IMG/VR virus record: IMGVR_UViG_2541047773_000006 | DNA: 49,096 nt | Source of the DNA: a virus | Taxonomy: Duplodnaviria; Heunggongvirae; Uroviricota; Caudoviricetes | Strand: one strand, 5' to 3' | Shown: positions 18,601-21,600 of the stretch, piece by piece | How positions within the stretch are numbered: the first letter of the stretch is position 1 | How the letters are laid out: each line of letters starts with the position of its first letter | Made by a program: the position numbers

Positions 18601-21600
18601 TGGCATATAGGTATGTATGACTTGCCTGGAAGTTTTATTCATTCGTTTTTTCTTGCCAGCTCCATGCTCACTGATAATGGTTTAGCTACGCAGGATTATG
18701 CAAACTGGCCCACGCACACGATAGTGTTTTTGCTGTTGTCAAGTTTCTTTGGGGGATGTATAGGTTCAACTTGTGGTGGAATTAAGTCACTTCGATTTCT
18801 TATACTTTTCAAACAAAGCAAACACGAGATAAACCAGCTTTCTCATCCCAGAGCGTTGTTGAGTGTAAATGTAGGAGGGAAGATAGTTACAGATCGTGTA
18901 ATGAGGTCTGTATGGAGTTTCTTTTTTCTTTATACTCTCTTCACGGTGTTTTTTATACTGGTGTTAAATGGTATGGGATATGATTTTCTTACATCATTTG
19001 CAACAGTGGCTGCATGTATTAATAATATGGGATTAGGTTTTGGGGCTACTGCATCGTCATTCGGAGTGCTTAATGACATTGCAAAATATTTAATGTGCAT
19101 AGCTATGATTCTTGGTCGCCTTGAAATTTATCCTGTTATTATATTGTTTTCAGGTTTTTTTTGGCGCTCCTAATATATGGCTGATTTATAATTGTGAGTT
19201 TAATATTATAGTGACTCACTCATTGATCCAATACCTAACTTTACCAGCAACACCTCCGCCCCCAGTAGCACTGGCTGCTGGGGTGCGTTTTATTCATAAA
19301 GCAAGGCTGTATGAGCGAGAAATTGAAGATCGTCTATCGCCCTTTACAAGAACTGTCTCCGTATGCACACAACGCCAGGACACACAGCCCTGAGCAGGTG
19401 GCACAACTGGTAGAAAGCATTAAGCAATTCGGCTGGACTAATCCGGTGCTGATTGATGAAAAGGGCGAAATTATTGCTGGTCACGGTCGCGTTATGGCGG
19501 CTGAAGTGCTCAAAATGGATTCCATTCCGGTCATCGTTCTGTCTGGTTTGATGGATGATCAGAAAAAGGCGTACCGCCTGGCAGATAATCGCCTGCCGAT
19601 GAATGCTGGCTGGGATGAAGATCTGTTACGGATGGAGCTGTCGGACCTAATCAATGCTGATTTTGATGTCTCCCTGACAGGCTTCAGCCCGACAGAAATT
19701 GATGAACTGTTGACGGATGTTTTGCCCGGTACAGAAAATGAGGAGGAGCCGTATACGACGAAAATTGATACGCCTGTTTATGAGCCGTCGGGCGGTAAAC
19801 CGGATATCAGTGAACTGTACGACGATACGAAAACTCAGGAGCTGATCAGCCGGATACGTTCGGCGTCTCTTGAGCCTGATATTGAGAAATTCCTCCTGTG
19901 TGCGGCAGAACGTCACACGGTGTTTAATTTCAGCAGAATTGCGGACTATTACGCTCACGCCCCCGCTGAAATTCAGTGTTTTTTCGAGGAGTCGGCGCTG
20001 GTGATCATTGATTATCAGCAGGCTATTGAAAATGGATTTGTCCGGATGACGCAGCGCATGGTGGAGATCATGCATGGTGGTGAGGAGGAGGAATATGCGT
20101 GATGATTTTTGCGCCTTTATTCTGACTCACGGGCGACCGGACAAAGTTCTGACTTACCGGACGTTGCGTCGTGCTGGCTATACCGGGAAAATTTTTATCG
20201 TTGTTGATGATGAAGATAAGACACGGCATCAGTACATGGCTGAATTTGGTGAACAGGTGCTGGTGTTTTCCAAAGCCGATATCGCCAGTCGTTTTGACGA
20301 AGCCGATAATTTCGGTGACCGCCGCTCAATTTTTTACGCCCGTAATGCCTGTTTCGACCTGGCAAAACTGGTCGGGTGTAAATACTTCATTCAGCTCGAT
20401 GATGATTATCACGAGTTCCAGTTTCGGGTGGATCGCAACTATGACCAGGCCTATTTTCCGATAAGGAAACTGGATGCGATCCTTTCTGAAATGCTGGCGT
20501 ACTACGAATCAATACCTGCTCTTTCCATCGCTATGTCGCAGGGCGGGGATTTTCTTGGTGACAATGGCGGCCATGCTTCGTGGGTGAAACGCAAGGCAAT
20601 GAACAGCTTTATCTGTTCGGTTGATCGACCGTTCTCATTCATGGGGCGCATTAACGAGGATGTGAATACGTACACGAATCTCGGTCGCTGTGGTGAATTG
20701 TTTATGACGATCGGTGCTGTCCAGTTAGGGCAGAAACAGACGCAGAAAAACAGCGGCGGAATGACCGAGCTGTATCTGGATTCCGGAACCTACGTTAAAA
20801 GTTTTTACTCCGTCATGTATGCGCCGTCGTGCGTAAAAATCTCACTGATGGGTGCCAGCCATAAACGCATTCACCATCAGGTCACCTGGAACAACGCTGC
20901 AGTAAAAATCCTTCACGAAAAATACAGGAAGAAGACACCCTGCATATCAATAGGGGTGACAAATGATTCCGTATTCGAAAGTCGAGTCTCTGGCAGCGTG
21001 CCGGATGACTGCACAACAAATCGCTGACGTTCTGGATGTTGATCTGAACCGACTGAAAGAAAATCGGGAAGCAATGACAGATTTTTATGCGGCCATCCGT
21101 AAGGGCAGAGCGAAAGGTGAAGCCGAGTTACGAGCGGCATTGTTTAAGCTTGCCAGAAAAGGGGATGCCTTTGCTCTGCGCGAACTACTCAGGGTGGATA
21201 AAAATCAGGACTAACTGATGAGCAGACCGGACTGGGGGGCGTTGCAGCAGGAGTATATTGCTGAATACACCCGCTCCGGTATATCTCCGGTGGCATGGTG
21301 TGAAGCAAGGGGACTGAATTACGCAACAGCCCGTCGTTACATCAAAAAACCTCCGAAAAATGCGCAGACAGAAATGCGCAAAACTGCGCAAAAAAGTGCG
21401 CAGAAAAAATCTGCGCAGACTGCACAAAAGCGGAACGAAAAATCTCAGGAAAAAAAGCCAGTATTCGATGCGGGCCTGAATGAGGGCGACGCGGAGGAAT
21501 TTTCGTTCTGTCCCGATGAATTCGGCATTTCTGACCAGCAGGCTAAGTTTGCGATGCTTGTTGCTCAGGGGAAAAAGCCGACAGAGGCGTACCGACTAGC

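Follow-up and report, generated by a model that had tools for sequence, protein, structure and literature searches.

A translationally coupled ParB-like partner and GT-A glycosyltransferase gene pair upstream of the terminase genes of a Rac-type Escherichia coli prophage

The gene pair and its glycosyltransferase

The stretch of DNA analysed here, called the window, is the 49,096-nt IMG/VR record IMGVR_UViG_2541047773_000006 (Caudoviricetes), a Rac-type prophage of Escherichia coli. Two overlapping open reading frames (ORFs) are found in it before the terminase genes. ORF1 (19311..20102, plus strand) encodes an acidic protein of 263 aa with an isoelectric point (pI) of 4.5. It is the full-length form of the ynaK gene of strain K-12 and its product is a putative adaptor or partner subunit. 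ORF2 (20095..21027, plus strand) encodes a mildly basic protein of 310 aa (pI 8.0), a GT-A glycosyltransferase (GT) of the TAGT family and the predicted catalytic subunit. The ATG of ORF2 at 20095 precedes the TGA stop of ORF1 at 20100-20102, giving an 8-nt overlap, ATGCGTGA. A Shine-Dalgarno run for ORF2, GAGGAGGAGG, can be read from the sequence at 20082..20091 (plus strand), within the 3' end of ORF1 and 3 nt ahead of the ATG. A mechanical ORF list puts the start of ORF2 at the ATG at 20074. The ATG at 20095 is taken as the true start because every homologue opens with MRDDFCAFILTHGRP. An earlier note on this DNA had described two intact coupled genes with an 8-nt overlap and a strong Shine-Dalgarno sequence on the second, and both coordinates and sequence agree with that description. 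The motifs that it named were also located. IIAGHGR is formed by residues 54-60 of ORF1, and DDEDK and DDDYHEF by residues 38-42 and 102-108 of ORF2.

Residues 8-222 of ORF2 match positions 4-205 of the 205-position Pfam model TAGT (PF20691) with 121.5 bits against a cut-off of 27.5 (E 6e-35). The protein also matches PHROG 842 (E 8.6e-104). PHROG 842 is labelled "beta-glucosyl-HMC-alpha-glucosyltransferase", a name carried over from T-even phages without support. RefSeq names the protein hypothetical or "GREB1-related". For ORF2, a PDB sequence search and PADLOC gave no match and NCBIfam had no model. An AlphaFold2 model built with 25 homologues is confident for approximately the first 150 residues and weak beyond them. 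When it was compared with predicted viral structures, the top matches were all TAGT-domain proteins, with E down to 1.4e-23. The modelled part has the single Rossmann-like fold of GT-A enzymes.

Several groups of residues are invariant in 25 ORF2 sequences whose identity to the window protein is 59-82%. These include R14, D38 and D41 (of DDEDK), E69-D71-N72, Y81-A82-R83-N84, D102-D103-D104, Q149-G151-D152, N187-E188-D189-V190, and H260-H261. The DDD triplet (D102-D104; 20398..20406, plus strand) is the putative DxD motif for binding of metal and nucleoside diphosphate (NDP)-sugar. According to Pyle et al., the signature R...DDD...ED[Y/F] marks the active site of the phage GT-A enzymes that glycosylate 5-hydroxymethylcytosine (5hmC) in DNA and of the Trypanosoma cruzi base-J glucosyltransferase (bioRxiv 10.1101/2023.12.21.572611). 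ORF2 carries R...DDD...ED (R14, D102-D104, and E188-D189), and the third residue of its last motif is V190 where the family has Tyr or Phe. The earlier note had guessed from motifs that the second protein was of GT-A type, and the match to PF20691 over the whole domain together with this signature bears the guess out. The sequence evidence thus identifies ORF2 as a soluble GT-A enzyme of the clade of TAGT and base-J glucosyltransferases, with an NDP-sugar and metal site that is predicted to be intact. It looks catalytically intact. A role in O-antigen modification or serotype conversion was considered and rejected, as there are no membrane segments and no genes of the gtrA or gtrC type, and the hosts of phages with the pair include Gram-positive bacteria, while one virus that carries it infects an archaeon.

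The partner protein and its association with the glycosyltransferase

An IMG/VR scan with the GT alignment gave near-identical E. coli-type loci only, and the diversity described here comes from a genome collection, a phage collection, and contigs. Among contigs taken as one genome per species, a homologue of ORF1 lies directly upstream of the GT in 27 of 27 loci. These belong to Enterobacterales, Bacteroidales, Clostridia, Chlorobi, Desulfovibrionaceae, Thiotrichales, Hyphomonadaceae, Opitutia, and Saccharibacteria. With local profiles, the C-terminal module of the partner (described below) was found directly upstream of the GT in all 36 loci. Proteobacteria, Bacteroidota, Firmicutes, Actinobacteria, and an archaeal virus are represented among them. 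In 29 of these 36 the end of the module gene falls within -10 to +2 nt of the first conserved residue of the GT. The identity matrices of partner and GT are correlated (Mantel r = 0.50, a value matched by 0 of 2000 permutations). Between the E. coli and Bacteroides copies, GT identity is approximately 50%. ORF1 is an obligate, translationally coupled partner of the GT. The pair is also present in Lactobacillus phages c5, phiLdb, LL-Ku, Ld17, PMBT4, and phi jlb1, in Nocardia phage NTR1, in 191-kb Vibrio phages, in Porphyromonas phages, and in the haloarchaeal virus HHTV-2.

ORF1 has four parts, namely a ParB/Srx-fold head, a helix pair, an acidic disordered linker, and a C-terminal module of approximately 105 aa. 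In the AlphaFold2 model the helix pair spans residues 103-134, a disordered linker with a confidence score (pLDDT) below 50 spans residues 137-167, and the C-terminal region is helical. The ParB/Srx-fold nucleotide-binding head is formed by residues 1-95 (19311..19595, plus strand). When ORF1 is aligned with solved ParBs, QPR becomes N21-A-R23, LQP becomes T-N44-P, and GERR becomes G57-H-G-R60. The pocket residues N21, R23, S36, G57-H58-G59-R60, and D92-N93 are kept. D92-N93 is invariant and, by our reading of the alignment, is the probable counterpart of the E-N motif of ParB. Partition ParBs (Spo0J, KorB, and Noc) thus share with ORF1 the fold of its first 95 or so residues and most positions of the CTP pocket. 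They differ from it in having GERR for GHGR and a helix-turn-helix (HTH) or parS-binding domain. No HTH or DNA-binding domain was found in ORF1 by Pfam or in the AlphaFold2 model, and the protein falls below the NCBIfam cut-offs for ParB (TIGR00180, 36 bits against 58.45). A search around the pair for parS-like or other notable repeats gave short chance-level matches only. Plasmid-type partition was rejected for ORF1, since no ParA is annotated in the reference genome that is 100% identical, HTH is lacking, and the prophage is integrated. The earlier note had called ORF1 a ParB-like nuclease. The ParB/Srx head of that description stands, and nothing indicates nuclease activity; Pfam and PHROG gave no match to HNH or any other nuclease domain in either ORF.

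The helix pair covers residues of approximately 102-135 (19614..19715, plus strand; GWD..LL..EL..L...SLTGFS..EID.LL), with modelled helices at residues 103-115 and 120-134. It is common to ORF1 and to fusions of ParB with DNA methyltransferases. The head matches PHROG 498, "DNA methyltransferase" (E 2.5e-50, residues 3-142), and PADLOC MTase_II, a Type II methyltransferase (E 1.8e-38, residues 10-146). A tblastn search with residues 1-137 found 380 phage records at 30-56% identity, many of them annotated as methylases and many at the left end of the genome. The ParB-methyltransferase fusions of PHROG 498 and MTase_II have N-termini that are 30-56% identical to residues 1-140 of ORF1, and many of them likewise lie at the terminase end of the genome. 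Judged by sequence, the head and helix pair resemble the N-termini of phage DNA methyltransferases far more closely than they resemble partition ParBs. ORF1 differs from the fusions in that Pfam finds no methyltransferase domain in it. The activity would instead be provided in trans by the separate GT, probably bound through the C-terminal module. A survey of ParB-fold fusions by Kaljevic et al. (PNAS 2025, PMC12704722) includes prophage methyltransferases and leaves glycosyltransferases and terminases unmentioned.

The GT-partner module comprises residues 146-250 (19746..20060, plus strand) and consists of a linear motif and a helical domain. The linear motif, PYTTKIDTPVYEP, lies in the disordered acidic linker at residues 147-159 (19749..19787, plus strand). 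It has the consensus Y-[TS]-x-K-[IV]-x-x-P-x-Y-x-P and is kept from the archaeal virus HHTV-2 to E. coli. The helical stretch reads FLxxAAxRHxxFxYxxIAxYYAH..Q.L.E.SALVIID..AI..G[FY]. In an alignment of 26 partners the best-conserved part is this module and not the ParB head. The module block is 105 residues long in 19 of the 26, and 106-107 in six more. No Pfam model covers the module, and a PDB sequence search with it gave chance-level matches only. The top matches of a module profile are stand-alone proteins of 120-190 aa that have no Pfam domain. In a representative library of 1.84 billion proteins, 1389 clusters (defined at 50% identity) contain the module at E <= 1e-3 and 831 at E <= 1e-30. 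Among the best 150 representatives of the 1389 clusters the module is C-terminal, with 16-40 residues beyond it in four, and approximately one-quarter are stand-alone modules. ParB_N was found by Pfam in 45 of 148 of the best representatives and the related GmrSD_N in four. The order of module then TAGT, with no head, is present at loci L116, L118, L101, and L104 and in Vibrio phage pv27. The constant partner of the GT is therefore the C-terminal module of ORF1, and the ParB head is facultative. The module is newly defined here as a partner domain and was previously unannotated. No description of it was found in the TAGT and ParB-fold literature that was searched, and a literature search on ynaK or on a ParB-plus-glycosyltransferase pair found no study of the module or of ynaK function.

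The layout of ORF1 is similar to that of a recently described type of activator. O'Toole et al. (PNAS 2026, PMC13229309) reported a subclass of phage thymine dioxygenases that depend on a ParB-like activator when acting on double-stranded DNA. The activator has a head, a helix pair, a linker of approximately 50 aa, and a C-terminal domain, with no DNA-binding domain, and mutations in its nucleotide pocket had little effect. ORF1 has the same layout, with a linker of approximately 30 residues compared with approximately 50 in ParB176. The residues mutated in ParB176 (N14, R16, S29, and R56) correspond to N21, R23, S36, and R60 of ORF1 with nearly equal spacing. Both are encoded beside the enzyme that they serve, in the case of ORF1 at all 36 loci. 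The likeness is one of layout and pocket positions. The clients differ, being a dioxygenase (5mYOX) for the activators and a GT for ORF1, with no 5mYOX among the neighbors scanned, and the genes that accompany the activator clusters encode kinases, amidotransferases, and amino-acid:DNA transferases and not this GT. Because the head and layout of ORF1 match those of the ParB activators and ORF1 serves a GT, the activation role of ParB proteins could by analogy be extended to glycosyltransferases. ParB-like partners of DNA-modifying enzymes would then include glycosyltransferases in addition to dioxygenases and methyltransferases.

Neighboring genes, flanks, and maintenance in E. coli

The pair usually lies immediately before terminase genes, and the terminases concerned represent at least four unrelated Pfam families. 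In 19 diverse loci, the four ORFs that follow the GT were inspected. The large terminases found there were Terminase_6N (seven), Terminase_3 (five), GpA (one), and a T7-type RNaseH domain (four), and the small terminases were GP3_package (four), Terminase_2 (three), and the Sf6 type (two). Other contexts contain HK97-type Terminase_4 and TerL_ATPase. The cos phage c5 has cos, partner, GT, two small ORFs, and terL in this order. In phi jlb1 the order is partner, GT, terS, and terL. In NTR1 (L122, 3-3408) the record opens with the partner and GT genes, which are directly followed by terL, with no annotated terS between. In HHTV-2, terL comes after the pair at a distance of approximately 3 kb, with eight small ORFs between them. 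Modules that lie away from terminases adjoin replication genes, such as those for DNA polymerase A (L101), DnaB and RecT (L118), and helicase, primase, and exonucleases (Vibrio phage pv27).

Some loci have companion genes that look like ones for glycan tailoring or donor supply. Class-I S-adenosylmethionine (SAM) methyltransferases are present at L084 and L116. A Hyphomonadaceae locus (L106, 2587-6161) has the partner, a 564-aa fusion of TAGT with a class-I SAM methyltransferase, and a second TAGT gene, which suggests a methylated or two-sugar product. In a metagenomic phage (L120, 1850-4418) the order is a separate ParB_N gene, the module gene, a histidine-phosphatase-cytidylyltransferase, TAGT, terS, and terL. 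The phosphatase-cytidylyltransferase possibly supplies an unusual activated donor.

In the window, the pair is followed by a small terS-like ORF at 21005..21214 (70 aa) or 20963..21214 (83 aa) on the plus strand, with a partial match to the small-terminase PHROG 309. It may be the split-off DNA-binding part of the small terminase. This ORF is kept between the GT and terS in Enterobacterales (L084, L085, and L107), and the final 20-25 or so residues of ORF2 are a non-conserved tail that overlaps it. The terS gene (21218..22312, plus strand; Pfam Terminase_2) and terL (22284..23594, plus strand; Terminase_6N/6C) follow. Within terS there are three imperfect 30-nt direct repeats (CGCAGA...CTGCGCAAA) at 21363-21428 and 22175-22204 (plus strand), the first two of which encode a stretch rich in lysine and glutamine, AQKSAQKKSAQTAQK.

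Upstream of ORF1 is trkG (17698..19173). It forms part of a low-GC segment at 17698-19283 (plus strand) that lies between the lysis genes and the pair, and is closed by a terminator-like hairpin, CCCCAGTAGCACTGGCTGCTGGGG, with a T-rich tail (19260..19283, plus strand). The hairpin was found by pattern scan only and ends 28 nt before ORF1. The GC profile gives 0.32-0.40 for trkG and 0.48-0.50 for the pair and terminase genes. The earlier note had the pair wedged between trkG and the terminase. The position is as it said, and the inserted element, from the GC profile and hairpin, is trkG and not the pair. We infer that the pair belongs to the late operon, because a gene for a Q-type antiterminator (14460..15116) and the lysis genes are found upstream of it. 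To reach the pair, late antiterminated transcription would need to run past the hairpin. Between the Q-like gene and the lysis genes there are also two phage-borne tRNA genes, tRNA-Thr(UGU) and tRNA-Gly(UCC), at 15479-15632 (plus strand). The early nin-like region contains a homologue of QueH, epoxyqueuosine reductase, at 12148-12834 (plus strand; Pfam E 1.9e-65), which also bears the name QueH in RefSeq. Such a gene is unusual in a lambdoid prophage. No gene of the DpdA/Tgt type was seen near it, and it was not found beside the GT pair at other loci.

Among 5426 complete E. coli genomes, 1566 contain the region, 889 of them with at least 80% of its length. ORF1 is an open frame of 259-264 aa in 77 of 77 full-length E. 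coli-type IMG/VR loci, and ORF2 is 310 aa long in 72 of the 76 in which its start could be located. Compared with the window allele, pN/pS (the ratio of nonsynonymous to synonymous polymorphism) is 0.12 for ORF1, 0.09 for ORF2, and 0.09 for terL. In ORF2, synonymous differences fall in 103 codons and nonsynonymous ones in 48. Both ORF1 and ORF2 are under purifying selection. That the pair is a decaying remnant is ruled out by its intact genes and by this selection.

Strain K-12 has lost most of the pair. K-12 strains match the first 254 nt only, and ynaK (87 aa) abuts ydaY, which is followed by a tape-measure fragment. In the reference genome that is 100% identical, ydaY sits between the tail-tube and tape-measure genes. 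Judging from these sequences, the Rac prophage of K-12 is the product of a loss of approximately 11.5 kb, from within ORF1 to the tail genes. The earlier note took both ynaK and ydaY for K-12 remnants of the pair. This is correct for ynaK, a truncated ORF1. As ydaY is a tail-region gene in the intact prophage, it marks the far edge of the deletion and is no remnant of the GT. The truncated K-12 gene appears to have affected annotation. In NZ_CP196316 (100% identical), the intact 263-aa ORF1 is annotated by the NCBI pipeline as a pseudogene of 258 nt, "ynaK, missing C-terminus" (L001 20001-20258, equal to 19311-19568 of the window). This is apparently an artefact of using the truncated K-12 YnaK as a model, and the same mislabel probably affects many E. 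coli genomes.

Possible acceptors of the glycosyltransferase

Iyer and colleagues are said to have defined the TAGT family computationally in 2013. The pair is like this family (PF20691 and PHROG 842, with the trypanosome base-J glucosyltransferase JGT and GREB1 as relatives) in its full-length profile match, GT-A fold, active-site signature, and viral origin, and in the frequent presence of ParB-like, terminase, and sugar-tailoring genes as neighbors. It differs in its obligate partner module of approximately 105 aa, and in that no TET/JBP enzyme, thymidylate-synthase-type enzyme, or C5-methyltransferase is found nearby in approximately 25 loci or in the whole c5 genome. Sequence and fold place the pair in a known family that was defined computationally, but it fails one of the defining contextual features of this family, the acceptor-supplying neighbor. 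The only phage DNA glycosylation that is understood is that which follows the making of a hydroxymethyl-pyrimidine. Burke et al. (2021) and Pyle et al. (2024) described phage GTs, including GT-A enzymes, that glycosylate 5hmC made by a methyltransferase and a TET-like enzyme. According to Pyle et al., approximately 65% of GT-containing phage contigs have no such neighboring enzyme, and they left these contigs unexplained. The pair described here is a compact and very conserved example of this hydroxylase-less class in a genetically tractable E. coli prophage. Identification of its acceptor could reveal a new DNA-modification chemistry, with bearing on restriction evasion, sequencing artefacts, and enzyme tools, or could show that this GT clade has moved to a non-DNA target.

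Our leading reading, which is tentative and put at somewhat below an even chance, is that the pair may be a late-expressed two-subunit DNA glycosyltransferase. Its acceptor would be something other than phage-made 5hmC or 5-hydroxymethyluracil (5hmU), because no enzyme that makes a hydroxymethyl-pyrimidine is present. The two proteins would be made from the late transcript together with the terminase. The C-terminal module of ORF1 would dock to the GT or activate it, and the ParB head, by analogy with the ParB-dependent thymine dioxygenases, could help the GT to engage double-stranded DNA. The complex would then glycosylate replicated phage DNA before or during packaging, and this DNA would be protected from host nucleases in the next cell. 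The predicted active site, the adjacency of the partner, the methyltransferase-like head, the layout shared with ParB activators, the position beside terminase or replication genes, the tailoring genes, and purifying selection are all in favor of it. PMC8256090 cites a computational proposal of Iyer et al. (2013) that ParB proteins steer enzymes of DNA modification during packaging. Of the two hypotheses in the earlier note, a DNA-modification or anti-restriction module and a packaging nuclease, it is the former that is better supported.

A number of observations weigh against DNA as the target. Confidence in DNA glycosylation is held at the level given above because of the acceptor problem, as the bases of canonical DNA have no hydroxyl group. 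Judging from gene content, neither of the only acceptors demonstrated for the family (5hmC or 5hmU in DNA) can occur here. In the window, the early region and the reference annotation show no TET/JBP hydroxylase, no enzyme of the thymidylate-synthase type, and no DNA methyltransferase. The 19 loci likewise gave none of these among the five ORFs upstream of the partner and the four downstream of the GT, and no acceptor-supplying enzyme appears in seven contexts with precomputed Pfam marks. The complete 31.8-kb genome of c5 has none either, and a scan of those hypothetical ORFs that remain in it and reach 100 aa gave no match of this kind. Confidence is low for the C-terminal half of the GT model. 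The partner ORF1 is strongly acidic and lacks a DNA-binding domain. The arginine of the P-motif is lost in some lineages, with GNGV in Bacteroidales and GNHT in NTR1, and the head is missing from approximately one-quarter of partners among the best 150 representatives of the 1389 clusters. Engagement of DNA or a nucleoside triphosphate by the head therefore cannot be essential everywhere. In addition, Pyle et al. considered GTs that have no hydroxymethylating neighbors to be less obviously DNA-directed.

A bolder form of DNA glycosylation can be stated, although we regard it as unlikely. In this form, the module installs a glycosylation that needs no hydroxymethyl handle, with the sugar placed on a canonical base or on DNA ends by a GT-A enzyme that is timed to packaging and is switched on for duplex DNA by its partner domain, which often carries a ParB-type NTP-binding head. 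If true, there would be a new DNA chemistry in approximately one-sixth of sequenced E. coli genomes, as well as in bacterial and archaeal viruses.

Protein glycosylation, also rather doubtful, is the alternative that survives best. The sugar could be placed on Thr, Ser, or Tyr of the Y-T-x-K...P-x-Y-x-P motif of the partner, or on a terminase or virion protein of the late operon. This motif is the most conserved feature of the partner and presents an invariant Tyr and a Thr/Ser in an exposed disordered linker, although its conservation would equally fit a docking or activation peptide. The module mostly heads the structural and packaging operon, whereas modules away from the terminase adjoin replication and not structural genes. 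The want of an enzyme making a DNA acceptor in the loci scanned would be explained by a protein target. GREB1, the TAGT relative, is reported in PMC7968844 to O-GlcNAcylate a protein, which also counts against a DNA target. On the other hand, the phage members of this GT-A group that have been tested experimentally act on DNA, and the head of the partner is of the type used by DNA methyltransferases.

It is improbable that the GT acts on hydroxymethylated cytosine or uracil made elsewhere, either in the DNA of a superinfecting phage, as a prophage defence, or through an unlinked or unrecognised hydroxylase. The family and its active-site signature agree with enzymes that use these bases. Pyle et al. 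raised the possibility that prophage GTs modify invading genomes, and O'Toole et al. noted thousands of divergent 5mYOX-like sequences that have no Pfam annotation. A role in prophage defence does not fit well with a pair that appears to lie in the late operon behind a terminator and not in a lysogenically expressed insert. It also does not fit with the presence of the pair in 191-kb Vibrio phages and in c5, an annotated genome with no integrase or CI-type repressor. An unrecognised hydroxylase is difficult to place in c5, which has no remaining ORF fit to be a dioxygenase.

The second hypothesis of the earlier note, in which ORF1 would act in packaging as a ParB-like nuclease or an accessory factor of the terminase, in the manner of the HNH endonucleases beside HK97-type terminases, and the GT would be a passenger, is very improbable. 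Databases do label the protein "ParB-like nuclease", and the position right before terS and terL across many terminase families, or directly before terL with no annotated terS in NTR1, would suit such a factor. The ParB head, however, is dispensable. In many loci it is absent or split off while the GT and C-terminal module are constant, and the P-motif is variable, with its arginine lost in several lineages. Neither HNH nor any other nuclease domain was recognised, and some modules are far from any terminase. Locus L109 has a separate weak HNH match at approximately 2.2 kb upstream of the partner gene and may thus already carry a gene of the HNH type.

Queuosine is glycosylated by GT-type enzymes in eukaryotes, and the prophage has the QueH homologue and the two tRNA genes, but an RNA or small-molecule target (a glycosylated tRNA base such as queuosine, or consumption of the nucleotide-sugar pool) is scarcely credible, as these genes are 4-7 kb away in another module and were not seen at other loci inspected, and the head of the partner points to DNA enzymes.

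In an HK97-type metagenomic phage that carries the pair (L109 15837-16894 and L110 8659-9716), two further Glycos_transf_2 genes follow the capsid gene. This arrangement recalls the virion-glycosylation genes of mycobacteriophages.

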